Part shown: piece by piece, positions 165 to 18,487 of the stretch
Layout: each line of letters begins with the position of its first letter
How positions within the stretch are numbered: position 1 is the first letter of the stretch
Assembly: GCA_902546765.1 (NCBI GenBank)
Contig: CACCLG010000002.1
Location: 18,839 to 82,838 of the forward strand
DNA: 64,000 nucleotides
Direction of reading: 5' to 3'
From: an uncultured Pelagibacteraceae bacterium
GTDB lineage: Bacteria > Pseudomonadota > Alphaproteobacteria > Pelagibacterales > Pelagibacteraceae
Made by a program: the position numbers and the translations under genes
Notes under the pieces: model-generated
Told to the model about the DNA's origin: nothing
What the model saw: only the letters and a program-made list of their open reading frames with translations
Databases searched by the model: none

Positions 165-1598
165 ATGGTAGATAAAAGAAAATTTTATATTAATGGTCAA
201 TGGGTTTCACCAAGTAAACCAAATGATTATGAGGTAATTAATCCTTCAACAGAAGAAGCATTTGCAACTATATCATTAGGATCAACGGAAGATACTAATG
301 CTGCAGTCTCGGCAGCCAAAAAAGCTTTGGTTAGCTGGAGCGAAAGTTCAAAGGATGAAAGATTAAATTTATTAGAAAAATTACTTTCTATTTATAAAAA
401 AAGATATGGAGAGATGGCTGATGCTATATCTATGGAAATGGGGGCCCCAATGGATTGGGCAACAGACGTGCAAACATCAAGTGGACAATCTCATCTTGAA
501 GATTTTATAAAAAGACTAAAAGAATTTAAGTTTGATGAGCAATTTGAACCAAATTCTAATAATCATATTTGTTATGAACCAATTGGAGTTTGTGGATTAA
601 TTACTCCATGGAACTGGCCAATAAATCAAATAGCTTTAAAAGTTGTTCCTGCCTTTGCAACAGGTTGTACAATGATACATAAACCATCGGAGATAGCTCC
701 AATTTCAGCAATGTTGTTTGCGGAAATGATTGATGAAGCAGGTTTTCCAGCTGGTGTATTTAATCTAGTGAATGGTGATGGCGCTGGCGTTGGTACAGAT
801 ATTTCATCTCATCCTGATATTGATTTAGTATCTTTCACAGGATCAACAAGAGCAGGTAAATTAATTTTAAAAAATGGAGCTGATACAATCAAAAGAGTTT
901 GCCTGGAATTAGGTGGAAAAGGTGGAAATATTGTTTTCGCAGACTCCTACCCTAACGCTGTACGAGATGGTATCAGAAACGTAATGAGTAATTCAGGTCA
1001 GTCATGTGATGCACCGACAAGAATGCTCGTTGAAAAATCAATATATGAGAGAGCAGTCAAAGAGGCTGTTGAAGAAGCAAATTTGATAAAGGTAGACCAT
1101 GCTTCAAAAAAAGGAGATCATATAGGTCCTGTTGTCTCTAAAATTCAATACAATAAAATAATAAGCCTTATTCAGAGTGGAATTGACGAAGGAGCAACTC
1201 TTGCAGCAGGTGGACCAGAATTACCTAACGGTATGAACAAAGGCTATTTTATTAAACCAACTATTTTTACTGATGTTACAAATGATATGCGTATTGCAAA
1301 AGAAGAAATATTTGGTCCGGTTTTATCTATAATACCCTTTGAGACGGAAGAAGAAGCAATTCAAATTGTAAATGAAACTGAGTATGGATTAGGTAACTAT
1401 TTACAAACTGAGGATAAAGAAAAAGCAAAAAGAGTTGCCAAAAAACTTAAGGCTGGAACAATTTATGTAAATGGAAACGGTGCAGACCCTGGTGCTCCAT
1501 TTGGAGGATATAGACAATCTGGAAATGGACGTGAAGGTGGTGTTTGGGGATTACATGAATTTTTAGAAGTTAAAGCTGTAACTGGTTGGCCAAAATAA
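165..1598 (+). CDS. NAD(P)-dependent aldehyde dehydrogenase
   Basis: ALDH motifs ITPWNWP, FTGST, LELGGKG (catalytic Glu), NSGQSC (catalytic Cys), EEIFGP, PFGGYRQSG. Confidence 0.95.
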   Translation: MVDKRKFYINGQWVSPSKPNDYEVINPSTEEAFATISLGSTEDTNAAVSAAKKALVSWSESSKDERLNLLEKLLSIYKKRYGEMADAISMEMGAPMDWATDVQTSSGQSHLEDFIKRLKEFKFDEQFEPNSNNHICYEPIGVCGLITPWNWPINQIALKVVPAFATGCTMIHKPSEIAPISAMLFAEMIDEAGFPAGVFNLVNGDGAGVGTDISSHPDIDLVSFTGSTRAGKLILKNGADTIKRVCLELGGKGGNIVFADSYPNAVRDGIRNVMSNSGQSCDAPTRMLVEKSIYERAVKEAVEEANLIKVDHASKKGDHIGPVVSKIQYNKIISLIQSGIDEGATLAAGGPELPNGMNKGYFIKPTIFTDVTNDMRIAKEEIFGPVLSIIPFETEEEAIQIVNETEYGLGNYLQTEDKEKAKRVAKKLKAGTIYVNGNGADPGAPFGGYRQSGNGREGGVWGLHEFLEVKAVTGWPK

Positions 1599-1599
1599 T

Positions 1600-1983
1600 A
1601 TGATTGGTTATGTTATGGTTGGCACAAACAATTTAGATCAGTCCATTAAGTTTTATGATGAATTGTTGGGAGTTTTAGATTTAGAAAGAATTGAAAAAGA
1701 TGAAGTGTGCGCTGGATATTCTCAAAAAAATAGCAACGGAAAAATAGAATTTTACGTCACAAAACCTTTTAACAAAGAAAAAGCAACAGTTGGTAATGGA
1801 TGTCAAATTTCATTTCAAACAAGCTCAAGAGAATTGGTTGATAAGTTTCATGATGTTGGGATTAAGTTAGGAGGTGCTAGCGAAGGATCTGGTGGTGAGA
1901 GACCTGAAGGCTCTGGAGTTTACTATTCTTACATTCGTGACTTAGATGGAAATAAAATCTGCGCTTTTACAAATAATCAATAA
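1600..1983 (+). CDS. VOC/glyoxalase family protein
   Basis: 127 aa with MIGYVMVGTNNL...FYD start and YIRDLDGNKI end, typical of VOC proteins. Confidence 0.85.
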   Translation: MIGYVMVGTNNLDQSIKFYDELLGVLDLERIEKDEVCAGYSQKNSNGKIEFYVTKPFNKEKATVGNGCQISFQTSSRELVDKFHDVGIKLGGASEGSGGERPEGSGVYYSYIRDLDGNKICAFTNNQ

Positions 1984-1986
1984 TAA

Positions 1987-2904: not shown

Positions 2905-2914
2905 AATTTAAGAA

Positions 2915-4081: not shown

Positions 4082-4084
4082 TTG

Positions 4085-4945
4085 TTAATTTTTGTTTATT
4101 TTTTCTGCAATTAATATTTTTCTTTGCATTTCTCTTAAAACAGGTTTTTCTATAAGTTTACCATCAATGACAACTAAACCTGTATTTGACTCATTAAATT
4201 GATCTACAATTCTTTTTGCATGACTAATTTCTTCTTTAGAGGGTGTAAAAACCTCATTTAAAATTTCTATTTGTTTAGGATGGATAGAGCCTTTGCCAGT
4301 AAAACCAAGATTTTTTGAAAGCTCTGCCTCTTTTTTCATCCCATCCATATTTTCTAAGTCTAAATATGGAACATCTATGACATCAACTCCAATACTTGCA
4401 CCTGCATGAACTAATTTTGATCTTGCGTATACTAAATTTTCCCATTTATGCTCACATCTAAGTTCAGCTGCCATATCTACACCTCCAAAATACAATGCTA
4501 CCGTTCTTTTGCTGGCATGAGCAATATCATAAATACATTCTAAAGCCTCATTCGTTTCCATTATTACATGAAGATCTGTATCTAAATTACAATCTGTAAG
4601 TAGATCATCGATAAACTTTATTTCATCAGGTGTTTTAACTTTTGGAAGCATTATTGCACCTATATTAATTTTACTTGAAGCGAAGGCCTCTAAGTCTTGC
4701 AAGCCATGTTTTGTCCTTTGACAATTAACTCTTACGACTAATTCAACATCTTCTTTAACTTTAAGTGTTTTTAAAGAGTTAAGTGTATTATTTCTTGCAT
4801 CATTCTTATCCTTAAGTGCTATACCATCCTCTAATTCTATACAAACCATGTCGGCCCCTGACTCGATTGCTTTTGGAAACATCTCTGGTTTTAAACCTGG
4901 TGTAAATATAAAGCTTCTTCGTACTCTAAGTTTATTTGAACTCAT
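4085..4945 (-). CDS. CitE-like CoA-ester lyase (HpcH/HpaI aldolase/citrate lyase family)
   Basis: RRSFIFTPG, ELEDG, VRVN, MLPKV, METNEA, GFTGKGSIHPKQI, DGKLIEKP. Confidence 0.9.
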   Translation of the reverse strand: MSSNKLRVRRSFIFTPGLKPEMFPKAIESGADMVCIELEDGIALKDKNDARNNTLNSLKTLKVKEDVELVVRVNCQRTKHGLQDLEAFASSKINIGAIMLPKVKTPDEIKFIDDLLTDCNLDTDLHVIMETNEALECIYDIAHASKRTVALYFGGVDMAAELRCEHKWENLVYARSKLVHAGASIGVDVIDVPYLDLENMDGMKKEAELSKNLGFTGKGSIHPKQIEILNEVFTPSKEEISHAKRIVDQFNESNTGLVVIDGKLIEKPVLREMQRKILIAEKINKN

Positions 4946-5063
4946 TTAAATATATAATGGTATAATCTTGTTTATTAATATTTAAAGCTATCATAATAAC
5001 TAAATTGACTTCAATAAAAAAATTTAATTTTAAATTTTAAAAAATTTCGAAGTATTGATTAAT

Positions 5064-6056
5064 TTAGTCAGATATAGATTGTATAAGTCTTTTTAAATGC
5101 TTGTCGTTAACTCCACAACAGCCTCCAACAATTTGAATTTGATCATCTATTAATTCTAAAATTGAGTTTGAAAACTCTTCCTCTGTCATAGTTATTATCG
5201 CTTTATGTGTATTAGTGTCAAATTTATGTATTTCAGGATAAAACATGATTGGTCCTTTCCAATTATTCTTCAATATTTTTAAACCACTAATGCTATCTTG
5301 AAACCAAGTGTGCATTATTCCATAAACATCACCCCCTAAACTCATAAGTGATTTTATTATATCCTCTAGTAAAATTATTTTATCTTCAGGTAAGTATTTA
5401 GGTTGGTCTTTATATTTATTCTCATCGTAAATAAGTGATTTTTCTTTCTCTGCTCTAAAATTTCTTCCAATAACGGAATTATCAAATTTACTATCGCAAC
5501 AACTCAATCCAACCCATACTGGTAAACCAGTTTCGAGAGCTGCATTCAATAACATTTTAGAGTGATCTACATCCAAAAGCATTTCTAGAACCAATAAATC
5601 TGCTCCAGATTCTTTTAAAATTTTTGCAGCTTCTTTGTAATTTTCTTCTTCCTTTTTAAAGGTTGGTACAAATTTTGGATTTGGAACAAACTCATTTTCC
5701 TTTAGAGGAAAAAAGTTTGATAAGCTACCTGCTACCGCAATTATATTTTTTTTTCCAGTATTTGATATCGCTTTTCTAGCAAGCTTAATTGAGTCTGAGA
5801 TAAATTTATGTACTTGATCACCTTTGCTTAAACTTTCCAAATTATGTCTATTTGTTGCAAATGTATTAGCAGTAATAATATCACAGCCAGCATTAATAAA
5901 ATTTTCATGAACTTTAATTACGATATCTGGTGATGTTAAAGTTGCTAATGCAGAAAATGCAGGGCTCATGTCGCCTCCAAGTTTTGCTATTTCAGAACCG
6001 TTCCCTCCATCTAAAAATATTTTAGTTTTTGATTTTAGCTTTTCTTTGAAAAGCAT
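5064..6056 (-). CDS. Homocysteine S-methyltransferase family protein (second paralog)
   Basis: FLDGGNGSEI, H..FINAGCDIITANTF, GADLLVLE, IVGGCCGV. Confidence 0.88.
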   Translation of the reverse strand: MLFKEKLKSKTKIFLDGGNGSEIAKLGGDMSPAFSALATLTSPDIVIKVHENFINAGCDIITANTFATNRHNLESLSKGDQVHKFISDSIKLARKAISNTGKKNIIAVAGSLSNFFPLKENEFVPNPKFVPTFKKEEENYKEAAKILKESGADLLVLEMLLDVDHSKMLLNAALETGLPVWVGLSCCDSKFDNSVIGRNFRAEKEKSLIYDENKYKDQPKYLPEDKIILLEDIIKSLMSLGGDVYGIMHTWFQDSISGLKILKNNWKGPIMFYPEIHKFDTNTHKAIITMTEEEFSNSILELIDDQIQIVGGCCGVNDKHLKRLIQSISD

Positions 6057-6059
6057 TTA

Positions 6060-6950
6060 CTATGATTCTTTTGGGGCTAATACAACTGCAAGCACGCCCC
6101 CCAATACAATCATGGAACTACCAACAATTTCTCGCCATCCAAACGGTTCATCGGTTAAAATACCAGCAGAAACAACCCCAACAACAATTTCACTCAAATA
6201 TAGTATTGCGCAAAGTCCAGCACCTAGAACTGATGGTGACCACATTATTATTACGCCTGTAGGAATAAAATAAAATACCGAAATAAGAACCAAAAAAGTA
6301 AACATAGAGAGAAAAGCCTCTGCAGGTGGAACAGGTCCTAGGTAATCTTTTAAAATATACCCAGCGAAAATATTAAATATTGTTCCATAAAAGAAAAAAG
6401 AAAATATTACAGGAAATACTCCGTCTGTTTTAGTAATTTCTAAACGTATAAGCCCACCACCAAAAAGAACACCCCCTACTAACGCCAACCAGTCTCCAGC
6501 ATTTTGAGGTAGTGGTACAATATTTGATTTACTAAAAACAATCCATAAACCACCAAGAGCAAGACCCAATGTTAAAACTCTTTCTAAGCCAGGTCTTTTC
6601 TTTAAAAAAATTATTTCAAAAATTGTTGTCCAAACTGGTATCATATAAAACATGATTAATGCACGTACAACATCTGTTAATAAAAAACTTAAGGCATAAC
6701 ATATAAAACCACTTCCTGTTAAAAAACCAACAAATGGTATTTCTAATCCTGATGAACGACCTTTAAATTTTCTCCACAAAGAAATTGGAGTTAGTAATAA
6801 TATACCTATCATCATTTGAGAAATAGTTCCCCACCCCCCAGTTAAGCCACCATTTTCTAAATATCTTTGAGGAAGCCAATAAACTCCCCATGATCCAGCT
6901 GCAATTGCTAACATAAAAGCTATTTTAAAATGATGTCGATGTCTTACCAT
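6060..6950 (-). CDS. DMT/EamA family transporter
   Basis: 296 aa with about 10 hydrophobic segments, in an EamA-like two-repeat pattern (WGVYW...; LSEIVVG...LTDEP). Confidence 0.8.
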   Translation of the reverse strand: MVRHRHHFKIAFMLAIAAGSWGVYWLPQRYLENGGLTGGWGTISQMMIGILLLTPISLWRKFKGRSSGLEIPFVGFLTGSGFICYALSFLLTDVVRALIMFYMIPVWTTIFEIIFLKKRPGLERVLTLGLALGGLWIVFSKSNIVPLPQNAGDWLALVGGVLFGGGLIRLEITKTDGVFPVIFSFFFYGTIFNIFAGYILKDYLGPVPPAEAFLSMFTFLVLISVFYFIPTGVIIMWSPSVLGAGLCAILYLSEIVVGVVSAGILTDEPFGWREIVGSSMIVLGGVLAVVLAPKES

Positions 6951-8365
6951 TAATTTAATTTTGGTTTGTGATTTGAATTATTGTAAATTTCCTCAAAGGT
7001 TTTTGCAAATGCAAATAGTTTTAAGTCATCTTTATTTTTACCAATGATCTGCATTCCCATTGGTAAACCATTTTCATTAAAACCAACAGGAATAGTTAAA
7101 GTTGGTAGATCTAAAAGACTGGACAAAATAAAAACTTCTAGCCATCTATGATATGTATCGAGACTGGTCTCGTTAATTTTACTTGGAAATTGAATACTTT
7201 TATCAAAGGGAAACAATTGAGCAGAAGGTAAAGCTAAAAAATCAAATTTATCAAAAATTTCATTAACTTGCTCAGTACATCTTTTTTTTTGTTCAAAAGC
7301 TAATTTTAAATTATCAGATTGAATATCTTTACCTTTGTTATATTCCCAAATTGCTTCAAATGTCATGGAATTTATATCTTTAATACCCATACTTAATGTA
7401 TCTTGATAAATACTTTTAGATCTAAAGGTAGTCCAGCTGTTCCATAATGTATCAGTATCTAAGCTTGGATTTAAATATTCAATTTCAAGATTATTTTTTT
7501 CTAAATCTTTTAATTTTTTTTCACATATATTTAAAATAGATTTTTCAATATTATATTTACCATTCATATTAGATAGCCAACCAATCTTTAAATTCGAAAA
7601 TTCTTTGTCTGATAATTTTGCATCCCTAAATGTACTATTTAAATCAAACGAAATTTTATCTAATGGATTACTACCAGTTATAGCATCAATTAAAAATGTC
7701 ATATCATTTGGTGTTTTTGCAAAACATCCTGGAGTGGTCAAAATAGGTATATCAAAATTTTGATATGTTCGATCAGCAGCAATCAAACCAGGAGTTGGTC
7801 TATATCCATAAATATTTGCATATGCTGCTGGTCCTCTACAAGATCCCATTTGATCAGTACCGTCCGCAAATGGAAGTAATCCAGCTGCAACCGCTGAACT
7901 TGCCCCACCGCTAGATCCTGCTGCAGACTTTTCAAAGTTATAAACATTAGATGTAGGTCCAAAAAGACGGTTAGTAGTATGTCCGCCAACACCCAATTCT
8001 GCGGTATTTGTTTTACCAATTATTATTGCTCCATTATCTATTAGTTTTTCTACAAATAGTGAATTTTTCTTAGGGCTATTATTTTTTGATCCTGCATAAC
8101 CATATGTAGTTTTTAAACCAACAACATCCGAAAGATCTTTTACCGCTATAGGCAAACCATTTAAAATTTTTTTGCTATTTTTTAAATTATCTTTCTGTTC
8201 TGCTTCCTTAATTAATAATTCTCTATCTTTTTGTAAAACTATAGCATTAATACCTTTATTAAATTTTTCTATTCTTTCTAAGTAGTAAACTAAGACTTCT
8301 TTAATTGAGACTTGTCGGTTTTTAATATTTTTTTGAATTTCTTCAACTGATAGATGATCAAGCAT
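6950..8365 (-). CDS. Amidase-signature family protein
   Basis: GLPIAVKD (Lys), GKTNTAE, GSSGGASSAVAAG, GTDQMGSCRGPA. The Ser-cisSer-Lys triad appears intact. Confidence 0.92.
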   Translation of the reverse strand: MLDHLSVEEIQKNIKNRQVSIKEVLVYYLERIEKFNKGINAIVLQKDRELLIKEAEQKDNLKNSKKILNGLPIAVKDLSDVVGLKTTYGYAGSKNNSPKKNSLFVEKLIDNGAIIIGKTNTAELGVGGHTTNRLFGPTSNVYNFEKSAAGSSGGASSAVAAGLLPFADGTDQMGSCRGPAAYANIYGYRPTPGLIAADRTYQNFDIPILTTPGCFAKTPNDMTFLIDAITGSNPLDKISFDLNSTFRDAKLSDKEFSNLKIGWLSNMNGKYNIEKSILNICEKKLKDLEKNNLEIEYLNPSLDTDTLWNSWTTFRSKSIYQDTLSMGIKDINSMTFEAIWEYNKGKDIQSDNLKLAFEQKKRCTEQVNEIFDKFDFLALPSAQLFPFDKSIQFPSKINETSLDTYHRWLEVFILSSLLDLPTLTIPVGFNENGLPMGMQIIGKNKDDLKLFAFAKTFEEIYNNSNHKPKLN

Positions 8366-8371
8366 TAAAGC

Positions 8372-9562
8372 TTAACGAGCTTTTTTTATACTTTGTAAAA
8401 CCATTTCTTTCATTTCTTCAAAAGAGACTTTCTTAGGGTTTTGGCCATACGCTTGATCTTTCATTGCTTTCTCTGCAATTCTTGCTGCACTGTCCTCAGG
8501 AACATTTAATTCACTTAAGCTTTTAGGGATTATAACTCTATCTAACAAATCTTCCATATTTTTAATGAATGCATCAACTGAATGATCTTTATATTGCATT
8601 GCTTCAGACATTCTTTGAACTTTTTCCTCCATGCCAGGTAAATTGAAACGTAAAACTACGGGTAAAACTATTGCATTAGTTAAACCATGATGCGTATTGT
8701 ACTCAGCACCAACCACGTGAGATATAGAATGTACATTACCTAATCCTTTTAGAAATGATATTCCTGCTAAACAAGATCCAACATGCATTCCACCTCTAGC
8801 CAAAAGATTATCTGGTTGTTCTACAGCATTTACAAGTGATTTGGATATCAATGATAGACCTTCTAATGCTGCTCCATCACACAGAGGATTAAATCCTGGA
8901 ACGCAGTATCCTTCAATTGCATGAATTAATGCATCTACGCCTGTCCATGCTGTTAGATTAGCAGGTAGTCCTATTGTTAATTCTGGATCAATTAATGCTA
9001 ATGAAGGTCTTACATCTGGGTGCCACATGCAAAATTTCATTCCCTCTTTTAAATAAGTTACCATAGCTGTAATTTCTGTTTCTGCTCCTGTTCCTGCTGT
9101 TGTTGGAATAGTTATAATTTTTGGAAATGGGTTATCTTTGCTTATTATTGGAGGAGTTAACTCAAACTCAAAATCTCTTAGTGGAACATCATTATTTGCT
9201 GTTAAACAAATTAATTTACCTCCATCCATAGCACTTCCACCACCTATAGCTATAATTGCATCATGATTTCCATCTTTAAATTTTTTGCAACCAACTGAAA
9301 CTTCATCCTCTCTTGGATTAGGAGATATATCGAAAAATAAATCTGATTTTACATTAGAATTAGACAAATAACTTTGTAAATTCGAAATAAATGGCAACTT
9401 TGGACTTCCCTTGTCAGTTACTACCAAGGGATTTTTTATATTTAAGTTATTACAAATCGTTCCAATTTCTTTTAAACGTCCAGGTCCGTATGCAATATTG
9501 GTTGGGAAAGTCCAATCTTGATTTGATAAGATATCAGATTCATTTAGTTTAAAGTTACTCAT
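8372..9562 (-). CDS. Iron-containing alcohol dehydrogenase
   Basis: GGGSAMDGGK, IPTTAGTGAE, DALIHAIE, HSISH, HHGLTNA metal-ligand motifs. Confidence 0.93.
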   Translation of the reverse strand: MSNFKLNESDILSNQDWTFPTNIAYGPGRLKEIGTICNNLNIKNPLVVTDKGSPKLPFISNLQSYLSNSNVKSDLFFDISPNPREDEVSVGCKKFKDGNHDAIIAIGGGSAMDGGKLICLTANNDVPLRDFEFELTPPIISKDNPFPKIITIPTTAGTGAETEITAMVTYLKEGMKFCMWHPDVRPSLALIDPELTIGLPANLTAWTGVDALIHAIEGYCVPGFNPLCDGAALEGLSLISKSLVNAVEQPDNLLARGGMHVGSCLAGISFLKGLGNVHSISHVVGAEYNTHHGLTNAIVLPVVLRFNLPGMEEKVQRMSEAMQYKDHSVDAFIKNMEDLLDRVIIPKSLSELNVPEDSAARIAEKAMKDQAYGQNPKKVSFEEMKEMVLQSIKKAR

Positions 9563-9604
9563 TTTATTAGTAAGGTTTATACAATTTTTTAAAAGATTTT
9601 TAAA

Positions 9605-10537
9605 ATGAAATTATCATCTGAAAAAATAGATGTGAAGAAAACCTATCTTGCTGTGACTACGATGCTCATGGCTATACTTTGTGTAGATTTATACATGGTT
9701 GTAATAAAATTTCTTGGTGGTGAATATTCTGTTATTCAATTAACAGTTTTTAGAAATGCAGCAGGAATTATTCCGTTACTATTATTGATAATATTTACAA
9801 AAGAATATTTTTCAATTTTTCAAAAAATTAACAAAAAATTTATAGTCTTAAGTTTTTTTAGAGGTTTGGCATTTTTATCAATGAACATATTTATATTCAT
9901 TTCCGTAATCAATTTAGAGTTTGCAACAGCTATGACCTTAACTTTTTCATCGCCATTCTTCATTGTAATTTTATCTATATTTTTTTTAAAAGATAAAGTT
10001 GGTAAATATAGATGGTCTGCAATTTTTTTAGGCTTCTTTGGTGTCGTTCTAATTATGAAACCAACTAGTGAGATATTTAGTTTTTATTCAATATTTCCAA
10101 TTATGACTGCATTTGCATGGGCAATCAGTGTTATCATACTTAAATTTATTCCTGAGGGCCATTCCACTGCAAAAATACAATTATATTCATTGATATTTAA
10201 CGTGCTAGGTGGATTAGTATTATTTTTTATCACCAGTGGTCATGTTGAAATCAAAAATGTTCAAGACTTTTTTTTAATGACACTTACTGGGATCCTTGGC
10301 GGCACAGCTGCTATTTTATTTATTTATTCCTATAGATTAATCTCTGCAAGCAAGATGGCATCATTTGAATACTTAGGAATACCATCATCATTTGTATTAG
10401 GATGGATATTTTTTAATGAAGCACCTTGGGCACAACTTTTTCCTGGAGTTGTCTTAATAGTGCTGGCTGGTATGATAATTATTTGGAGAGATAAAGTTAA
10501 TGAGAAAAGTATTAAAAGTAATAAAAAATTTAGCTAG
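9605..10537 (+). CDS. DMT/EamA family transporter
   Basis: About 10 TM segments; FSSPFFIVILSIFFLKDKV and LGWIFFNEAP are EamA-type motifs. Confidence 0.85.
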   Translation: MKLSSEKIDVKKTYLAVTTMLMAILCVDLYMVVIKFLGGEYSVIQLTVFRNAAGIIPLLLLIIFTKEYFSIFQKINKKFIVLSFFRGLAFLSMNIFIFISVINLEFATAMTLTFSSPFFIVILSIFFLKDKVGKYRWSAIFLGFFGVVLIMKPTSEIFSFYSIFPIMTAFAWAISVIILKFIPEGHSTAKIQLYSLIFNVLGGLVLFFITSGHVEIKNVQDFFLMTLTGILGGTAAILFIYSYRLISASKMASFEYLGIPSSFVLGWIFFNEAPWAQLFPGVVLIVLAGMIIIWRDKVNEKSIKSNKKFS

Positions 10538-11576
10538 CTGATTTCATAGATTTCATAACAATAGCACGGTCTATTTCTCCCAATAATTTACCTGTATCAC
10601 TACACACAACAGGAAATGCTTTATCACTATCAACAAGTTTATCTATTAAGGTTTCAATTTTAGAGTTGTCTAAAATATAATTTTGTTTTGAGTTATAAAA
10701 TTCTTTCGTATCAGAGCAACATTCAACTCTCATTACTTTAGAAGCACTTAAAACTTTATATTTTGGCACGTCTTCACAAAAATCTTTTACATATTGATCC
10801 TTAGGATTTGCAACAATTTCCTCTGGCGTTCCTATTTGTGATACTTCGCCGTCTTTCATTATTGCAATATGATCTGCCATTTTAATAGCTTCTAAAAAGT
10901 CATGAGTAATAAACACCATAGTTTTTTTTACTTTTTCTTGAATATTTAAAAGTTCGTCTTGCATTTCTCTTCTAATAAGTGGGTCAAGTGCTGAAAAAGG
11001 TTCGTCGAATATTAAAATTTCTGGATCTACTGCCAATGCTCTTGCTAAACCGACCCGTTGTTGCATCCCGCCTGAAAGTTCTCGAGGATAATTATTTTGC
11101 CATCCATCTAAACCCACCATTTTTAAAACTTCCATTGATTTTTCAATTCTCTCAATTTTTTTGCTTCCTCTTACTTCTAAGCCGTAACCAATATTTTCTA
11201 CAACTGTCCTATGTGGAAAAAGTCCAAAATGCTGAAAAACCATACTCATTTTGTTTCTTCTTAAATCTAGCAACTCCCTATTACTCATCTTTGTTACATC
11301 TACGTCATCCATTTTTACCATTCCTGAAGTAGGCTCTATCAGTCTTGAAATGCATCTTACTAATGTTGATTTTCCACTTCCTGATAAACCCATTACAACA
11401 AAAGTTTCGCCTTTTTGTATTGAAAAACTTACATCTTTCACGGCAACTACGTGTCCAGTTTTCTCTTGCACTTCCTTAATTGATAATTTCGGATCTAGTT
11501 CCTTCATTACTCTTTTTTCATCAGGCCCAAAAAGTTTCCAAATATTTGAACAAGTTATTTTTGAAGAACTACTCAT
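10530..11576 (-). CDS. ProV/OpuAA-like quaternary-amine ABC transporter ATP-binding subunit
   Basis: Walker [44 protein letters not shown], degenerate C-terminal CBS-like region. Confidence 0.93.
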
Positions 11577-11653
11577 AATTTCAATGTATTAAGATCAAAA
11601 TAGACAATATTTTCCTTTAAATGTAAAATAATTTATTTTAATTTATAAATACA

Positions 11654-13777
11654 ATGGATGCAGTCCAAAAAACACTGAAAAATAAAAATAATACAAACAA
11701 TATTATAAAATATTCATTGGTATTATTGGTTTTTATTGGAGCTTTATTTCTTTCAACTCAAAATGACGGACCATCAAAATTTCCTAAAGTTGTAACTGAT
11801 GAATTTACTTTTACAGCATGGGTAAATGAAGGGGAAGATTATCTAAAGAAAAATTACAGATGGATTACAAAAATTTTAGCAAATTACATTAAAGCTGGTT
11901 ATTATTTTTTGGAAGATTTTTTGCTTGAGTCACCTTGGATTTTAGTCGCTGCAATTTTAACTCTTCCTTGTTTTATAGTTGGTGGGCTAAAATTAGGCTT
12001 GTTTTCTTGCTTTGTAATTTATTTTTGGGGGGCTGTTGGATTATGGGAAGCATCTCTTCAAACAGTTGCTTTAATGGGATTGTCGGTTTTCTTATGTGTA
12101 TTTTTCGGAGTATTACTTGGAATAGCCTGCTCTCAGAGTGATAGATTTGAAAATTTTATGAAACCTGTTTTGGATACTATGCAGGTTATGCCTGCTTTTG
12201 TTTATTTATTTCCTGCATTATTTTTTTTTGGAATTGGAGGGGCGCCTGCAATATTAGCTACAATGATTTATTCAATGCCACCAATCATTCGATTAACCAA
12301 CACTGGTATACGGCAAGTTTCAAAAGAAACTGTGGAGTCTGCGACTTCGTTTGGTTCAAGTAAGTTGCAATTATTATTAAAAATTAAAATTCCTATGTCT
12401 TTGCCAAGTATTATGATGGGCATCAATCAAGTTATTATGATGGCTTTAGCTCTTGTTGTATTAGCATGTTTTATTGGTGCAGAAGGAATTGGTGGACAAG
12501 TATGGCAAGCAATAAGAAGACTTGATGTGGGATGGGCAATGGAAGGTGGTCTTTGTATTTTATTCATGGCAATAATGTTTGATAGATTTAGTAAAGCTTG
12601 CAGTAATAAAGAAGTCAAACTTCCATCAAATGCAAAAAAATTTCATTTGCTTCCTCAAAATCTAGAAAAATATAAAATTGCAAGAATTTTGGAAATGCCT
12701 TTAGATATTACAAGCAAAATTATAGACTTTATATGTATTAAAATTACAAATTTTATTGCATCCTTCACAAGTATTATAATTTCAATTTTCAATAAAAATA
12801 CTGCAAATGATATTGGTGAATTTATAAGTAGAAGATTTTATTTGATTCCATCATTGATAGCTTTATTTGTTATTTCATTCATAGATTCTAATTTACATGA
12901 AATAGGGACGTTTCCTAAAGAGTGGAAGTTATCAATAAGACAACCGATTTCTAATGCTGTAGAGTCGTTGACAGTTGATCCAGGCTTTATTGCATTTTCT
13001 AAAGGATTAAGAGGATTTGTTTATCTTAATTTATTAAGGCCTTTAGACATTTTTTTAACTCATACACCATGGTGGTATACATTAGCAGTTTTTGCAAGTA
13101 TTGGTTATTTTACAGTTGGACTAAGGTTTGCAATTATTACAATAATACTTTTATTGTTTATTGGAGCTTGTGGAATATGGCCCCAATCAATGATTACGTT
13201 ATCCTCGGTTTTAGTTTCAGTATTGTTATGTTTTATAATAGGAGTTCCTCTTGGTATAATAGCTTCTTACAGCGAAAGATTTAAAAATGTTCAAGATGTT
13301 GTACTGGATGCTATGCAAACGCTTCCATATTTTTGTTATTTAATTCCAGTTTTAATGTTTTTTGGAGGTGGAATAGTTTCTGCAGTTCTGGCTACAGTAA
13401 TATATTCTATACCGCCTATAATAAGATTAACTGCGCTTGGATTAACTCAAGTATCTGGTACCTATTCAGAGGTATCAAGATCTTTTGGTGGATCCCTTTT
13501 GCAAACTCTCAATAAAGTAAAATTTCCTTTAGCTATACCAAGTTTAGTAATAGGTTTTAATCAAACTGTAATTATGGCGTTTGCAATGCAAATTGTTACT
13601 CCACTTATAGGTGGAAAAGGACTGGGTCTAGAGGTTTTTAATGGATTAGCTAGATCTGATACTGGAAGAGGATTGGCAGCAGGTGTTGGGATAGTCCTTC
13701 TAGCAATTATAATTGATAGAATAAGTCTTGCTTGGACAAAGAAACAAAGAATAGCATTAGGTTTAGCCAAAAAATAA
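11654..13777 (+). CDS. ProW/OpuAB-like ABC permease with two fused permease modules
   Basis: Two repeats: LDTMQVMPAFVYLFP...PPIIRLT...GINQ and LDAMQTLPYFCYLIP...PPIIRLT...GFNQ. Confidence 0.92.
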   Translation: MDAVQKTLKNKNNTNNIIKYSLVLLVFIGALFLSTQNDGPSKFPKVVTDEFTFTAWVNEGEDYLKKNYRWITKILANYIKAGYYFLEDFLLESPWILVAAILTLPCFIVGGLKLGLFSCFVIYFWGAVGLWEASLQTVALMGLSVFLCVFFGVLLGIACSQSDRFENFMKPVLDTMQVMPAFVYLFPALFFFGIGGAPAILATMIYSMPPIIRLTNTGIRQVSKETVESATSFGSSKLQLLLKIKIPMSLPSIMMGINQVIMMALALVVLACFIGAEGIGGQVWQAIRRLDVGWAMEGGLCILFMAIMFDRFSKACSNKEVKLPSNAKKFHLLPQNLEKYKIARILEMPLDITSKIIDFICIKITNFIASFTSIIISIFNKNTANDIGEFISRRFYLIPSLIALFVISFIDSNLHEIGTFPKEWKLSIRQPISNAVESLTVDPGFIAFSKGLRGFVYLNLLRPLDIFLTHTPWWYTLAVFASIGYFTVGLRFAIITIILLLFIGACGIWPQSMITLSSVLVSVLLCFIIGVPLGIIASYSERFKNVQDVVLDAMQTLPYFCYLIPVLMFFGGGIVSAVLATVIYSIPPIIRLTALGLTQVSGTYSEVSRSFGGSLLQTLNKVKFPLAIPSLVIGFNQTVIMAFAMQIVTPLIGGKGLGLEVFNGLARSDTGRGLAAGVGIVLLAIIIDRISLAWTKKQRIALGLAKK

Positions 13778-16108
13778 ATGACCAAAAATAAAGGTCTGCC
13801 CTTAACTAGTAACCATTGGGGTACCTACAGGGCCAAAGTTAAAAATGGCAAGCTCGAGGAACTCATTGGTTGGGAACATGACAAAGACCCATCTCCTATA
13901 GCACAAGGAATTGTTGATGTGCTCGATGGACCAACACGTATTGAAAAGCCAATGGTTAGAAAAAGTTGGCTCGAGAAAGGTCCAGGGGCAAACAATAATT
14001 TAAGAGGTGTTGAACCATTTATTGCAGTTAGTTGGGATAAAGCAGAAGAACTTGTAGCAAACGAGATTAATAGAGTAAAAGATAAATATGGGAACTCCTC
14101 AATATTTGGTGGTTCGTATGGATGGGCAAGTGCAGGCAGATTTCATCATGCTCAAAGTCAATTACATAGATTTTTAAATTGTGTTGGTGGATATACAAGA
14201 TCAAAATTTACATACAGTTTTGCTGCTGCCGAGGCAATGGTTCCTCATATACTTGGGAGTTATCGTGCTTATCTTGATACATGTACTAGTTGGGAGTCTA
14301 TTAAAAAAAATACAGAAGTTTTTCTTTGTTTTGGTGGAATACCAATTAAAAATGGTCAAATTTCTCAAGGTGGAACAGGTCATCATTATCAAAAGGAAAA
14401 TTTAATTGAATCAGCAAATTCAGGAATAGAGTTTATAAATGTTAGTCCACTTAAATCAGATTTAATTAATGAGGTTAGTGGTGAATGGATTGCAGCAAGA
14501 CCTAACACAGATACTGCTTTAATGTTAGGGCTGGCTCATACAATTTATTCTGAAGGACTTATTGATACTAATTTCTTAAAAAAATATACAGAAGGTTTTG
14601 AAATATTTTTACCATACCTATTAGGAAAAAATGATGGTGTTGAAAAAAGTGCAGAATGGGCTTCAGCCATTTGTAATATTTCAGCATCTAAAATTAAAGA
14701 GATAGCTATAAAAATTTCAAAAAAAAGAAGTATGATTTCAATAAGCTGGTCGTTAACCAGACAAGATCATGGTGAACAACCATTTTGGATGGGTATTATG
14801 CTTGCTTCTATGATTGGTCAAATAGGATTACCAGGAGGTGGGTTTGGTTTTGGTTATAGCGCTACAAATTTTATTGGTGGTCAATTCAAAGTTTTACCTG
14901 GGGCAGCATTTCCACAAACAGAAAATAAAATAGAAAATTTTATACCAGTTGCAAGAATTAGTGATCTTTTGCTTCATCCAGGAAAAAAATTTGATTTTAA
15001 TGGAAAGTCATATGTGTATCCAGATACCAAGATAGTTTACTGGGCAGGTGGAAATCCATTTCATCATCATCAAGATTTAAATAGACTGATAAAAGCTTGG
15101 GAAAAACCAGATACAATAATTTCAAACGAATGGTGTTGGAATACACTCGCAAAAAGATCCGATATTGTTTTGCCTTGCACTACTCCGCTTGAGAGAACAG
15201 ACATAATGATGACACCTAGGGATCCATTTGTTGTATCAATGGATAAAATAATAGAACCTTATGGGCAATCTAAAAATGACTTCGAAATTTTTGCAAATAT
15301 TGCAAAAAAAATGGGGATTGAGGAAAAATTTACTGAGGGAAAAAGTCAAGATGAGTGGCAAGAATGGATTTATAAACAGACATTTGATAGAGCGGCAGCT
15401 GCAAATATTGAAATACCTAAATATGAAAAGTTCAGAGAGCAAAAATGGTTTAAAATTAGCGATCCGACAGAACCAACAATAATGTTGAAGGATTTTAGAG
15501 AAGATCCTAAAAAAAATCCACTGAACACACCAAGTGGTAAAATAGAAATCTTCTCAAAGACAGTGGCTGACTTTAATTATGATGATTGTCCAGGACATCC
15601 AGTATGGTTTGAACCTTGTGAATGGCTGGGCAAAGTAAATAAAAAATATCCGATTCACTTAATATCAAATCAACCTAAAAATAAACTACACAGCCAAATG
15701 GATCATGGAAAGTATAGTAAGTCATTTAAAATAAATGAGAGAGAGCCACTTGAAATTAATCCTTTAGATGCAAAAAAACGTGATTTAAAAAATGGAGATG
15801 TAGTTAAAATGTTCAATGATAGAGGATCTTGCTTGGCTGGAATAAAGATCACAGATGATGTAATGCAGGGAGTAGTACAAATGAGTACTGGTGCTTGGTA
15901 TGATCCAGAAAATCCTAGTCAAGATGGAAGCATGTGTAAACATGGTAATCCAAATGTATTGACGCCCGACAAAGGTACATCTAAACTTGGACAAGGCCCT
16001 ATTGCACATTCTTGTCTTATTGAGATTGAAAAATACAATGATACACTTCCAGAATTAACTGCTTTTGATCCACCAACAATTTTAAGATCTAACGCAAAAA
16101 CAAACTAA
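13778..16108 (+). CDS. Molybdopterin guanine dinucleotide S/N-oxide reductase (BisC/DMSO reductase family), cytoplasmic
   Basis: SNHWG, PMVRKSWL, GGSYGWASAGRFHHAQ, TYSFAAA (Mo-ligand Ser), WAGGNPFHHHQDLN, TPSGKIEI, LHSQ. No Tat signal and no Fe-S Cys motif. Confidence 0.93.
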   Translation: MTKNKGLPLTSNHWGTYRAKVKNGKLEELIGWEHDKDPSPIAQGIVDVLDGPTRIEKPMVRKSWLEKGPGANNNLRGVEPFIAVSWDKAEELVANEINRVKDKYGNSSIFGGSYGWASAGRFHHAQSQLHRFLNCVGGYTRSKFTYSFAAAEAMVPHILGSYRAYLDTCTSWESIKKNTEVFLCFGGIPIKNGQISQGGTGHHYQKENLIESANSGIEFINVSPLKSDLINEVSGEWIAARPNTDTALMLGLAHTIYSEGLIDTNFLKKYTEGFEIFLPYLLGKNDGVEKSAEWASAICNISASKIKEIAIKISKKRSMISISWSLTRQDHGEQPFWMGIMLASMIGQIGLPGGGFGFGYSATNFIGGQFKVLPGAAFPQTENKIENFIPVARISDLLLHPGKKFDFNGKSYVYPDTKIVYWAGGNPFHHHQDLNRLIKAWEKPDTIISNEWCWNTLAKRSDIVLPCTTPLERTDIMMTPRDPFVVSMDKIIEPYGQSKNDFEIFANIAKKMGIEEKFTEGKSQDEWQEWIYKQTFDRAAAANIEIPKYEKFREQKWFKISDPTEPTIMLKDFREDPKKNPLNTPSGKIEIFSKTVADFNYDDCPGHPVWFEPCEWLGKVNKKYPIHLISNQPKNKLHSQMDHGKYSKSFKINEREPLEINPLDAKKRDLKNGDVVKMFNDRGSCLAGIKITDDVMQGVVQMSTGAWYDPENPSQDGSMCKHGNPNVLTPDKGTSKLGQGPIAHSCLIEIEKYNDTLPELTAFDPPTILRSNAKTN

Positions 16109-16118
16109 AGAGATTAAA

Positions 16119-17294
16119 TTGGGAAATCTACAAGAAGAATCTGATCTTAACAAAACCATTAAAATAAGTGCAAGAAGATTTGAAGAGTCTCCTTACATTG
16201 AAAGAACCAATAGTCCTAAAATGGTCCGTGGAGTTTATGCAGGACGATATTTTCCAATATCAATAGGTGAAGATCCAATCGAAAAATATTGGCTACTAAG
16301 ACAGAAGGCATTAATTTTTGACGTTCCAGAAAAGCCAGTGGAAATATCAGGTAAAGATGCAATTCCCTTTTTAGAAAAAATATTAACAAGAAAAATTTCA
16401 TCAATAAAAGAAGGTAGAGGTTATTATTCTTTAGCGTGTACTCCTCAAGGTGGGATTTTTATGGATGGAGTGATTTTTAAATTTAATGATAATAAATTTT
16501 GGTATGTACAAGCTGATGGTCCGTTTGAAGATTGGTTATTAGCTCATAGTGAAAATTTCGATGTAAAAATATCAGATCCGAAGTCAAGGGTTCTACAAAT
16601 TCAAGGTCCTGCATCGATTGATATTATGAAAGCAGCATCAAAAGGAAATATAGATGAAAACATGCCATATTTTAGATCAGGTTTTTTTAATCTTGGAGGA
16701 CAAGATCTATATGTTTCAAGAACTGGTTTTACTAACGAGCTTGGTTTTGAAATTTATTCTGATGGTTATAAGACAGATCACTTAGCTCTTTGGGATCATT
16801 TAATAGAATGTGGAAAGCCTTATGGGATGGAACTATCATCCTCTCGTGCGATGACTATAAGAAGAATTGAGGGAGGAATATTTGGAAATTTAACTGATAT
16901 TGATACTACTTTGACTCCATTTGAGGCTGGTTTAGGATTTTTTGTAAATATGGATAAAGGTGATTTTATTGGAAGGGAAGCATTATTAAAAAAAAACAAA
17001 GGAACATGTTTATTTGGTGTTACTTGTGAAACTGATACACCGACTTCTGGAAGTAAAGTTATAGAAGGTGATAACGTTGTAGGAAATATAACTGCGGGTG
17101 TACCCTCACCTACATTAAAACTTGGAATTGGATATGTGAGATTTTATGAACCAAAAGAATGGCCTGGTAAAAAGTTAAAGTTAGAGTTGCCCAATGGTGA
17201 AATCCATGACTGTAATGTTGTTAATTTACCATTTTTTGATCATGAAAAAAAAATTGTTAAAGGAATAGACCGTACAATCCCAAAGAAACCATAA
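16119..17294 (+). CDS. THF-dependent aminomethyltransferase family demethylase (GcvT/DmdA-like)
   Basis: IFDV, VEISGKDA, IQGP, SRTGFTNELGFEIY, RRIEGG, TPFEAGL, FIGREAL, SPTL, LPFFD. TTG start. Confidence 0.9.
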   Translation: MGNLQEESDLNKTIKISARRFEESPYIERTNSPKMVRGVYAGRYFPISIGEDPIEKYWLLRQKALIFDVPEKPVEISGKDAIPFLEKILTRKISSIKEGRGYYSLACTPQGGIFMDGVIFKFNDNKFWYVQADGPFEDWLLAHSENFDVKISDPKSRVLQIQGPASIDIMKAASKGNIDENMPYFRSGFFNLGGQDLYVSRTGFTNELGFEIYSDGYKTDHLALWDHLIECGKPYGMELSSSRAMTIRRIEGGIFGNLTDIDTTLTPFEAGLGFFVNMDKGDFIGREALLKKNKGTCLFGVTCETDTPTSGSKVIEGDNVVGNITAGVPSPTLKLGIGYVRFYEPKEWPGKKLKLELPNGEIHDCNVVNLPFFDHEKKIVKGIDRTIPKKP

Positions 17295-17354
17295 AATGGT
17301 CAATAGACCGCATTTTTAAGGTACAAATGCCCTGAGTTTTAAAATTATATACAG

Positions 17355-17408
17355 TTTACATTCGCTGAATTTTTGGGCTAAAATAATATTTTAAATTTAA
17401 AAAGAGGA
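17355..17408 (+). promoter_or_regulatory. Putative sigma70 promoter and RBS for the substrate-binding protein gene
   Basis: TTTACA (17355-17360), 18-nt spacer, TAAAAT (17379-17384); GAGGA at 17404-17408, upstream of the ATG at 17417. Confidence 0.45.
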
Positions 17409-17416
17409 TAAAACAT

Positions 17417-18427
17417 ATGAGGTTATCAAAGACAATATCAGCACTATTTTTATCTTTAGTGCTTATGGTAGGTAGTTTTGGAACAGCTAATGCTGCTAAA
17501 AGACTACATGCTGCTATTGCTGACTGGACAGGTGGAATAATTACTTGTGAAGTCGCTGTAGCAATTCTCGAAAGAGAAATGGGTTATAAGATTAAACAAA
17601 CAGTATTTCCTTCAGGGACTGGTCTATGGGAGGCTATTGCAGCTGGTGAACTAGATTTTGCTTGTGAGAGCTGGCCAAGTTATGCTGAAGCAGATGATGT
17701 AATGTTTAATGAAGATTTAATTTATGATGGCAAAGTAGTAAAATCTTACAAAGGCGATGGAACAGTTGACCTTTTAGGAACTACTGGAATTATAGGTATG
17801 TCAGATTACTGGATACCAAAGTATGCTGCAGATGAATTAGGTATCAAAACTTGGAGAGACCTAAACAAACATAAAGCTAAATTTGCAACTATTGAGACAG
17901 GTGGTAAAGGAAGATTAATTGGTTGTCCAGTAGCTGGTTGGAACTGTCATGATCAAAAAAGACTAGATCTTTTAGGAATTGATTTCCAAGCAGATGAACT
18001 AGGTACAGAAGCTGCTGCAATTGCGGAAGCAAAAGCTGCTTACATGAGAAAAGAACCTTTCTTATTATACCTATGGTCACCACATTGGTTTTTTGGAGAG
18101 TTTGATATGGTAGGTGTTCAACTTCCTGAGTATGCAACATGTGAAGGTGATACATTTACTGAAGCAAACAACTGGAAGACTTGTGGTACAAAAGGATGGC
18201 CTGCAACTGGTTGGGACAAAGACTATACCATGAACTACGGAAATCCTGCTACTTTTGCTAAAGCAGAACACTCTGATGCAAAAACTTTTTTTGAAAAAAT
18301 GAAATTAGAAAATATCGACCAAGCTAAAATGTTAGTTGAAGTAGATATCAAAAAAAGAGATGTTAAAGAAGTTGTTAACGAGTGGTTAGACAACAATCCA
18401 AATAAATGGAAAAGTTGGTTACCGTAA
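17417..18427 (+). CDS. ProX/OpuAC-like ABC substrate-binding protein
   Basis: Signal peptide ending ANA-A; DWTG, ESWP, GKGRLIGCP..GWNC, LWSPHW, and C-terminal W...N...W..W. Confidence 0.9.
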   Translation: MRLSKTISALFLSLVLMVGSFGTANAAKRLHAAIADWTGGIITCEVAVAILEREMGYKIKQTVFPSGTGLWEAIAAGELDFACESWPSYAEADDVMFNEDLIYDGKVVKSYKGDGTVDLLGTTGIIGMSDYWIPKYAADELGIKTWRDLNKHKAKFATIETGGKGRLIGCPVAGWNCHDQKRLDLLGIDFQADELGTEAAAIAEAKAAYMRKEPFLLYLWSPHWFFGEFDMVGVQLPEYATCEGDTFTEANNWKTCGTKGWPATGWDKDYTMNYGNPATFAKAEHSDAKTFFEKMKLENIDQAKMLVEVDIKKRDVKEVVNEWLDNNPNKWKSWLP

Positions 18428-18452
18428 TAATTACTTAGTAACTATTTAAATT

Positions 18453-18487
18453 AAAGGGCTTTGATTAATTTCAAGGCCCTTTTTTTT
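18453..18487. terminator. Rho-independent terminator, probably bidirectional
   Basis: AAAGGGCTTTGA-ttaatt-TCAAGGCCCTTTTTTTT between the convergent SBP and rpoZ genes. Confidence 0.85.

Follow-up and report, generated by a model that had tools for sequence, protein, structure and literature searches.

A conserved molybdoenzyme-methyltransferase pair within an onium-type importer operon of Pelagibacter: a probable osmolyte catabolic cluster with two new enzyme clades

Methyl sulfoxides are the classic substrates of BisC/DorA-type molybdoenzymes, and the tetrahydrofolate (THF)-dependent demethylation of a sulfonium compound is on record as the orphan activity trimethylsulfonium-tetrahydrofolate N-methyltransferase (EC 2.1.1.19), for which we know of no sequence. 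Among importers of methylated solutes, the binding protein TmoX has a defined set of aromatic-box residues and a glutamate, Glu131, that binds the oxygen of trimethylamine N-oxide (TMAO) (PMC8918994). In DmdA, which demethylates dimethylsulfoniopropionate (DMSP), Trp171 has been reported to be DMSP specific (PMC7487153), and the demethylation of dimethylsulfoxonium propionate (DMSOP) is listed as an open question (PMC10686828). Here we describe a gene cluster in a stretch of 64,000 nucleotides (the window; contig CACCLG010000002.1, positions 18,839 to 82,838, assembly GCA_902546765.1) of an uncultured Pelagibacter (SAR11) genome, in which a molybdenum (Mo) enzyme and a stand-alone GcvT-fold methyltransferase are encoded inside the operon of an onium-type importer. 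The molybdoenzymes recorded for Pelagibacteraceae in a recent survey (msrPQ, yiiM/ycbX, fdh, cox, and xdh) do not include an enzyme of the window type (PMC12636525). We found no description of the cluster in the literature on SAR11 C1, TMAO, DMSP, and DMSOP metabolism, on SAR11 molybdoenzymes, or on betaine demethylation. We conclude that known enzyme families occur here in an undescribed combination, as a probable osmolyte catabolic cluster with two new enzyme clades.

Gene order in Pelagibacter and beyond

The source genome comprises 0.98 Mb in 37 contigs and is 65% complete; the G+C content (GC) around the locus is ∼31%. The core of the cluster consists of the following features.

10530..11576, minus strand: ABC ATPase of the ProV type (TIGR01186 proV, 359.4 bits, above the cut-off of 326.6), divergent from the permease operon
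11654..13777, plus strand: fused double permease of the TmoW/ChoW type, 707 aa (two BPD_transp_1 halves; TIGR03416)
13778..16108, plus strand: predicted cytoplasmic Mo-bis(molybdopterin guanine dinucleotide) (bis-MGD) S-/N-oxide reductase, 776 aa, a new clade near BisC/DorA (Pfam domains, bisC_fam score, 1EU1 alignment)
16119..17294, plus strand: stand-alone GcvT-fold THF-binding methyltransferase of a new subfamily, 391 aa (TTG start; GCV_T and GCV_T_C)
17417..18427, plus strand: periplasmic solute-binding protein (SBP), a TmoX-like paralogue (Pfam OpuAC, 148 bits; best PDB match TmoX, 4XZ6)
18453..18482, plus strand: terminator-like hairpin at the operon end (12-bp stem and T run; consensus match only)

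The stop codon of the permease gene (TAA) is followed immediately by the ATG of the Mo-enzyme gene (0 bp between), and 10 nt separate the Mo-enzyme stop codon from the methyltransferase start. A first-pass annotation, made from the letters of the sequence, had given the same open reading frames (ORFs), the same gaps of 0 and 10 bp, and the same families, all of which were borne out by ORF calls and Pfam/NCBIfam searches. An Rfam scan of window positions 1 to 20500 found no riboswitch or leader, its sole match being a chance-level L20 leader overlapping the terminator, and a promoter scan remained at the level of shuffled sequence (36 found versus 34.7 expected).

In Pelagibacter, the Mo enzyme was present in 6 of 200 sampled species (∼3%); none of 100 genomes of other Pelagibacterales genera carried it. 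The order proV|permease-Mo enzyme-methyltransferase-SBP was the same in all six other Mo-enzyme-bearing Pelagibacter species, at protein identities down to 76%. ProV was 87 to 92% identical in these six genomes, and the flanking EamA, iron-type alcohol dehydrogenase (Fe-ADH), amidase, and EamA-like genes were common to all of them. A methyltransferase orthologue (>80% identity) was found within Pelagibacter only where the same cluster was present, the best match elsewhere being a 36 to 38% identical paralogue. In metagenomes, hundreds of sequence clusters were at least 80% identical to both enzymes, some of them with 100 to 800 members, and a plasmid search returned just a 36% paralogue and no cultured carrier.

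A profile search with the methyltransferase also recovered orthologues of 57 to 70% identity in SAR116, Rhodobacteraceae, Chromatiales, other Gammaproteobacteria, and further metagenome-assembled genomes. For the linkage counts, contigs with a GC above 0.36 were taken as non-SAR11, identity was measured against the window Mo enzyme, and copies of at least 62% identity were counted where the downstream flank was long enough. Where the Mo enzyme was at least 62% identical, the methyltransferase gene followed 14 to 68 bp downstream in seven of seven metagenome contigs (L134, L137, L142, L143, L147, L151, and L205; GC 0.39 to 0.64). Between 55 and 62% identity, only L152 had a methyltransferase paralogue, located upstream, and linkage was seen in 0 of 25 metagenome contigs whose Mo enzyme was less than 55% identical. 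The same pair was present in two genome loci, L057 (GC 0.61) and L066 (GC 0.47). Recurrent partners outside SAR11 were a TmoX-like SBP, an ATPase, a fused permease, a BetI-like repressor, an Fe-type or GMC-type alcohol dehydrogenase, an aldehyde dehydrogenase resembling betaine aldehyde dehydrogenase (BADH), a CitE-family lyase, a small VOC-family protein, and an EamA-like membrane protein. One contig, L205, held a complete operon, BetI(-)|SBP-proV-proW-Mo enzyme-methyltransferase-FeADH-Aldedh, and a Rhodobacteraceae contig (G400:C72) carried the whole set within 16 kb, in which the Mo enzyme is immediately preceded by a second, 47% identical methyltransferase paralogue.

The gene arrangement lies far beyond chance, since it is conserved across species and across phyla-level GC classes. 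We conclude that the Mo enzyme and the methyltransferase are a conserved functional pair tied to an onium-type importer, and that other marine bacteria, resembling SAR116, Rhodobacteraceae, and Gammaproteobacteria, share modules of the island. The first-pass annotation had made its proposal depend on linkage in other genomes, and our gene-neighborhood survey found that linkage conserved, in SAR11 and beyond.

The two enzymes and the importer

The Mo enzyme matched the Pfam domains Molybdopterin_N, Molybdopterin, and Molydop_binding with 48, 184, and 91 bits, all above the cut-offs. Its score on bisC_fam (TIGR00509) was 968 bits, under the cut-off of 1017.55, and its scores on the TorA equivalog models were far under theirs. 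Mature DorA (1EU1) aligned with it end to end from mature residue 9 (E = 6e-210); Ser147 (the Mo ligand), Tyr114, and Trp116 of dimethyl sulfoxide (DMSO) reductase were conserved, within the aligned motifs SYGW at positions 113 to 116 and YS at 146 to 147. The protein lacks a twin-arginine (Tat) leader and starts at mature residue 9, and it is therefore a cytoplasmic protein. This agrees with the cytoplasmic reductase proposed in the first-pass annotation; its Tyr is of the S-oxide type. Since the genome encodes fdhF and a mobA-like gene (140.9 bits, just below the cut-off), the host is plausibly able to make bis-MGD, with the S-/N-oxide reductase capacity of the Mo enzyme a prediction from these genes. 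Public annotations name the Mo enzyme a biotin/methionine sulfoxide reductase, and the names given to cluster members are generic.

The methyltransferase scored 150.8 bits on GCV_T and 37.5 bits on GCV_T_C. Every curated cut-off exceeded its score, with 164.7 bits against 410 for the DmdA model (NF009133), 162.4 against 300 and 133.9 against 235.85 for the GcvT models, and 178.8 against 1100 for the Tdm model (NF053776), of which only profile positions 389 to 762 were matched. The THF domain of Tdm was nevertheless the best NCBIfam match, scoring 188 to 196 bits in four other clade members, including the L102 orthologue; a PDB search ranked DmdA first. In a maximum-likelihood tree the protein fell into a separate 33-row clade (support 100/99) outside DmdA, GcvT, and Tdm, with DmdA as the nearest characterized paralogue, sister at 97/94 on long branches. 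The folate-binding Glu and Tyr of the GxEhY motif were kept. The DMSP-specific Trp171 of DmdA (PMC7487153 numbering), which we mapped by motif match to Trp197 in the RSGW motif of the 3TFH chain, corresponds to a Phe (RTGF, in RTGFTNELG). An AlphaFold (AF2) model (pLDDT 87.8) gave a TM score of 0.82 to both GcvT and DmdA, and 0.82 to 0.85 when dimethylglycine oxidase (DMGO) was included, so that a fold search on this model did not discriminate among GcvT-, DmdA-, and DMGO-type chemistry.

Judged from profile scores and phylogeny, the methyltransferase is not DmdA, GcvT, or Tdm and represents a new subfamily. The earlier label of a DmdA-like demethylase is not supported in its strict meaning, given the separate clade, the scores below curated cut-offs, and the Phe in place of DmdA's Trp. 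The same genome encodes a true DmdA (567.8 bits) and a true GcvT (470.9 bits; contig C3) elsewhere than in the island, and a genuine tdm (1113 bits, above the cut-off) together with a tmoX fragment on a short separate contig (C26:37-3169; L001, L048). Among the island genes that were scanned, neither gcvH nor gcvP turned up. Because both Tdm and DmdA are encoded in the genome, we rejected the idea that the island replaces either of them. Two further GcvT-type proteins were noted. An 824-aa ORF (window 39115-40044, minus strand) carries a GcvT-type THF domain, with 144.6 bits on the C-terminal Tdm model, and is probably a dimethylglycine or sarcosine dehydrogenase-type enzyme. In addition, L116, L117, and L119 and ∼20% of sampled Pelagibacter genomes encode a stand-alone GcvT-family paralogue, 35 to 38% identical to the window protein, which scores 196 bits on DmdA, below the cut-off, and groups with sequences from Roseobacter and SAR116 in a clade distinct from the others.

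The importer proved to be of the ProU type, as proposed in the first-pass annotation, with a ProV ATPase, a ProW-type permease, and an OpuAC-type SBP all present. The SBP, which has a Sec-type leader as judged by eye, matched TmoX (4XZ6) best in the PDB (E = 7e-21) and scored under the ProX and choline-SBP cut-offs. The four-Trp cage of TmoX is kept, W37, W86, W175, and W220 corresponding to W55, W102, W177, and W222 of 4XZ6. The column of TmoX Glu131 is occupied by Ser129, with Asp130 adjoining, in all SAR11 orthologues. The TmoX motifs NWSSQ and FNW are absent from the SBP and present in the genome's own tmoX fragment. On the choline permease model TIGR03416, the permease scored 427 bits against a cut-off of 363, a sum over its two fused halves; fused permeases of similar length (690 to 692 aa) occur in L058, L061, L076, and L102. 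Since the genuine tmoX and tdm lie on a separate contig, the window transporter is a second, paralogous system beside tmoX-tdm. The DMSP-specific SBP DmpX was rejected as a model, being absent from the PDB matches of the window SBP; 7YLE, which is not confirmed as DmpX, was only a weak match for the L102-type SBP. In two single-amplified genomes (SAGs) of uncultured Alphaproteobacteria (L076 and L088; GC 0.35), SBP, proV, fused permease, and Tdm genes are followed directly by a 46% methyltransferase paralogue; Tdm already has its own THF domain there, yet a stand-alone GcvT-fold gene follows.

Accessory island, substrate, and competing explanations

Upstream of the core, window positions 165 to 10537 contain a homologue of each accessory gene type seen in the clusters of other lineages.

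165..1598, plus strand: BADH-like aldehyde dehydrogenase (NCBIfam BADH, 421 bits, below the cut-off)
1600..1983, plus strand: small VOC/glyoxalase-family protein, 127 aa (Pfam PF00903)
4085..4945, minus strand: CitE/HpcH-family C-C lyase (NCBIfam RipC_Ccl, 253 bits, below the cut-off)
8372..9562, minus strand: iron-type alcohol dehydrogenase, island-specific paralogue (Pfam Fe-ADH)
9605..10537, plus strand: EamA-family membrane protein (Pfam EamA; next to proV in each of the six other Pelagibacter genomes with the cluster)

The aldehyde dehydrogenase is 53 to 54% identical to those adjoining the methyltransferase in L058, L066, and L102. Its orthologue (75 to 99%) lies 4 to 13 kb from the Mo enzyme in five of five cluster-bearing Pelagibacter genomes and was found in one of five cluster-less genomes. 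Homologues of the VOC protein (44 to 50%) belong to the Mo-enzyme/methyltransferase operon or cluster in L073, L142, L147, L152, and G400, and those of the CitE-like lyase (56 to 61%) directly follow the methyltransferase in L059, L142, and L147 or the Mo enzyme in G400, L155, and L170. The Fe-ADH is 60 to 63% identical to the enzymes encoded after the methyltransferase in L057, L058, L137, L151, and L205. No orthologue of it was found in five complete Mo-less Pelagibacter genomes, four of which have a 37 to 41% paralogue, with no match in G015 (E ≤ 1e-60). In these five genomes the rpoZ and MFS transporter neighbors are kept, the island Fe-ADH is absent from all five, and the aldehyde dehydrogenase is absent from four. 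We therefore conclude that the unit of gain and loss is an accessory catabolic island of ∼18 kb (window 165-18482).

Other genes of the island and its relatives were also recorded. Two genes of the homocysteine S-methyltransferase family (PF02574 type; 1987-2904, plus strand, and 5064-6056, minus strand) scored 123.7 and 81.4 bits on PRK09485, below the cut-off; one of them (HMT2) also occurs in L021. Their products may draw on the same onium compounds as a source of methyl groups for methionine. The SAR11 island further includes an amidase gene (6950-8365, minus strand), which reached 442.6 bits on the PRK07486 subfamily model (cut-off 465), and a gene for a serine hydrolase of the beta-lactamase family (2915-4081, plus strand); neither was seen in the non-SAR11 clusters. 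In the SAGs L054 to L056 and L069 (GC 0.31), an operon variant has short-chain dehydrogenase/reductase (SDR) and BKACE genes (the latter on the opposite strand) after the methyltransferase, followed by an SBP, a ligase resembling malonyl-CoA synthase (643.8 bits, above the cut-off of 558), and an NAD-binding protein; this variant resembles carnitine-type beta-keto acid cleavage.

We tentatively favor, at somewhat less than even confidence, an undescribed breakdown route for a methylated osmolyte with oxidized or sulfonium sulfur, that is, a DMSOP-type sulfoxonium or its sulfonium and sulfoxide relatives, with chemistry, substrate, and order of steps deduced from gene content. The solute imported by the SBP-dependent system of the TmoXWV type would be a methylated onium or oxide compound whose head group is held in the four-Trp cage. 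The cytoplasmic, Tat-less DorA/BisC-type molybdoenzyme would remove oxygen from an S-oxide, and its GcvT-fold partner would pass one methyl group to THF. Alcohol congeners would be oxidized to the acid by the alcohol and aldehyde dehydrogenases of the island, and the common product would be a methylthio acid, degraded in DmdBCD fashion to methanethiol or reduced sulfur plus methyl-THF. Reduction might precede demethylation, demethylation might precede reduction, or the two enzymes might act as parallel feeders into one thioether or methylthio acid.

This sulfur-based route is preferred because of the sulfur-handling neighbors seen in relatives and because of sulfoxonium chemistry. To our knowledge, only the reduction of a sulfoxonium to a sulfonium leaves a methyl donor for SN2 transfer to THF; demethylation of a sulfoxonium yields a methyl sulfoxide, and reduction of an N-oxide yields a neutral tertiary amine that is not a methyl donor to THF. 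L060 has a methanethiol oxidase (SBP56) gene close to the methyltransferase, L148 has one adjoining the Mo enzyme, and rhodanese genes occur in L059 and L148. In L144, L146, and L148, the Mo enzyme has as neighbors DmdB-, DmdC-, and DmdD-like genes for a CoA ligase, an acyl-CoA dehydrogenase, and an enoyl-CoA hydratase. In L162 and L166, a 700-aa ADP-forming CoA ligase, with the DMSP/DMSOP lyase DddX as best PDB match (7CM9, E = 1e-55), is encoded between a methyltransferase paralogue and the Mo enzyme. The more specific proposal that the pair represents the missing enzymes turning oxidized dimethylated sulfur (DMSOP, other sulfoxonium or sulfoxide osmolytes, or DMSO derived from them) into methylthio compounds or methanethiol plus methyl-THF is less likely than not to hold. 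An import-reduce-demethylate pathway had already been suggested in the first-pass annotation, and of this the conserved enzyme pair with its onium importer stands. Its strict order of steps is just one of several possibilities, because the methyltransferase is not DmdA, conserved partners were omitted (the alcohol and aldehyde dehydrogenases, the BetI-like repressor, the CitE-like lyase, and the VOC protein), and orthologues occur without an adjacent Mo enzyme. Among the candidate substrates it named, the sulfur class, such as DMSOP, fits best in view of the neighbors in relatives, and an N-oxide is chemically less favored.

Several observations weigh against the sulfur-based route. The nearest solved relative of the SBP binds TMAO, the methyltransferase has Phe at the DMSP-specific Trp position, and no electron donor gene for the Mo enzyme is encoded nearby. 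Close methyltransferase orthologues lack an adjacent Mo enzyme in SAR116 and Chromatiales genomes, L058, L060, and L061 being loci of this kind; three of four genomes with an unlinked orthologue encode a full-length Mo enzyme of 53 to 58% identity at some place, G397 having just a 228-aa fragment, and in the L102 genome this copy is part of the same cluster, ∼11 kb from the methyltransferase. The BetI-like repressor, the GMC enzyme, and the BADH-like dehydrogenases equally fit a choline/betaine pathway, and the GMC enzyme of L066 scored 728 bits against the NCBI choline-dehydrogenase subfamily cut-off of 605. Pelagibacter species with the cluster show just a weak enrichment of methanethiol oxidase (3 of 6 versus 34 of 194), in genomes that are not independent, and seawater DMSOP is ∼0.14 nM (PMC10686828). 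In the genus sample as a whole, the gene for methanethiol oxidase (SBP56/MtoX) has an accessory distribution: of the 200 Pelagibacter species sampled, 37 encode it, and 100 genomes of other Pelagibacterales genera yielded none.

The same dehydrogenases and regulators could belong to a nitrogen series leading from choline or carnitine to glycine betaine, in which the methyltransferase would be a THF-dependent betaine or quaternary-amine demethylase, with TMAO or some other N-oxide entering from the side through reduction by the Mo enzyme; betaine catabolism would then be freed from homocysteine. The BetI-like repressors (that of L060 above the NF001978 cut-off), the GMC enzyme above its choline-dehydrogenase cut-off, the BADH-like and GbsB-like dehydrogenases, the carnitine-type SDR-BKACE-CoA ligase set inserted in the SAR11-like variant L054 to L056, the TmoX-like SBPs, and a permease that passes the choline-permease model all speak for such a series, as does the dependence of SAR11, without MetE and MetH, on betaine-homocysteine methyltransferase (PMC12478193). 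We nonetheless consider it unlikely. It offers no chemical rationale for the tight coupling of Mo enzyme and methyltransferase, because N-oxide reduction gives a neutral amine and no methyl donor, and it leaves the methanethiol oxidase, rhodanese, and DmdBCD/DddX-like neighbors unexplained. Moreover, tmoX-tdm is already present elsewhere in the genome, and no GcvT-family betaine demethylase is among those described in PMC12478193. Lower still we place a BisC-type salvage of free methionine or biotin sulfoxide, in which the Mo enzyme would be cotranscribed for economy and would serve a pathway separate from that of the methyltransferase. The public annotation as biotin/methionine sulfoxide reductase, the 968 bits on bisC_fam, the need of SAR11 for reduced sulfur (PMC12478193), and the occurrence of the methyltransferase without the Mo enzyme are consistent with salvage. 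That score, however, is below the cut-off of 1017.55, methyltransferase linkage is specific to the clade of at least 62% identity while copies below 55% stand alone, the gene is accessory (6 of 200 sampled species) rather than housekeeping, and it lies inside transporter operons in several lineages.

Two further explanations would change the chemistry more radically. The pair might be a split, Mo-based analogue of the TMAO demethylase, with a redox-neutral shift of oxygen from N or S to the methyl carbon (for example, turning DMSO into methanethiol or an N-oxide into a secondary amine) and capture of formaldehyde as methylene-THF by the GcvT-fold partner. The Tdm THF domain as best NCBIfam match (178.8 bits; 188 to 196 in four clade members), the lack of a linked electron donor gene, and the 46% paralogue that immediately follows a true Tdm gene in L076 and L088 would all fit. 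We nevertheless regard this as very improbable: no member of the type III DMSO reductase family is known to us to hydroxylate a methyl group, the profile preference is marginal, the PDB search ranks DmdA first, and the fold search is nondiscriminating. Least probable of all, and hardly to be expected, are methylated arsenic or selenium oxides and onium compounds (arsenocholine, arsenobetaine, or dimethylarsinoyl compounds) as substrates. Pelagibacter does oxidize the methyl groups of dimethylarsenate by enzymes that have not been identified (PMC6426599), and an onium SBP, alcohol and aldehyde dehydrogenases, an oxide reductase, and methyl transfer fit formally; but no arsenic-resistance or As-specific gene was present in any locus examined, environmental concentrations are very low, and the case is purely one of analogy.

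Significance and comparison with described systems

SAR11 lacks sulfate reduction as well as MetE and MetH, so that its sourcing of reduced sulfur and methyl groups shapes the sulfur and carbon cycling of the ocean. The module described here is abundant in marine metagenomes and recurs in several major groups of bacterioplankton, and its two enzyme clades and orphan binding protein can be directly expressed and screened. If the substrate were sulfur of the DMSOP or DMSO type, the cluster would constitute an added sink and a new branch of the DMSP/DMSO/dimethyl sulfide cycle. Its enzymes would then include the first reductase/demethylase for DMSOP, or else the THF-dependent sulfonium/thioether methyltransferase that has long been sought, and would give sulfur-auxotrophic SAR11 and other bacterioplankton access to a large pool of oxidized organosulfur. 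If the substrate were a nitrogen osmolyte, the cluster would provide a homocysteine-independent demethylation route.

Compared with described systems, the window is closest in its importer to TmoXWV/Tdm of R. pomeroyi and SAR11 (4XZ6; PMC8918994), with which it shares an SBP of the OpuAC fold that carries a four-Trp cage, a double permease in fused form, and a THF-binding enzyme with a GcvT module encoded beside the transporter. It differs in that Ser-Asp replaces Glu131 of TmoX, the NWSSQ and FNW motifs are missing, and the methyltransferase lacks the DUF1989 metal domain that is fused to the GcvT module in Tdm. The methyltransferase resembles DmdA of P. ubique (3TFH) in being a stand-alone protein of ∼390 aa with the GcvT fold (TM score 0.82) that retains the folate Glu and Tyr. 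The sulfonium demethylation to THF of EC 2.1.1.19 is the chemistry proposed for it here, a likeness by activity alone. The betIBA/gbsAB clusters resemble the island-type loci in placing a BetI-like repressor, a GMC- or Fe-type alcohol dehydrogenase, and a BADH-like dehydrogenase by a ProU-type importer, but the island-type aldehyde and Fe-alcohol dehydrogenases are under the equivalog cut-offs, and the known bet/gbs clusters, as described in PMC12478193, contain neither a Mo enzyme nor a GcvT-family gene. The Mo enzyme, finally, shares the three-domain bis-MGD fold and Ser147, Tyr114, and Trp116 with DorA of Rhodobacter (1EU1/1DMS) and with BisC (TIGR00509). Whereas DorA has a Tat leader, the window enzyme has none and is in this respect like the cytoplasmic BisC, below whose family cut-off it scores (968 versus 1017.55); in contrast to both, its clade is always followed by a GcvT-family gene and sits inside an importer operon.

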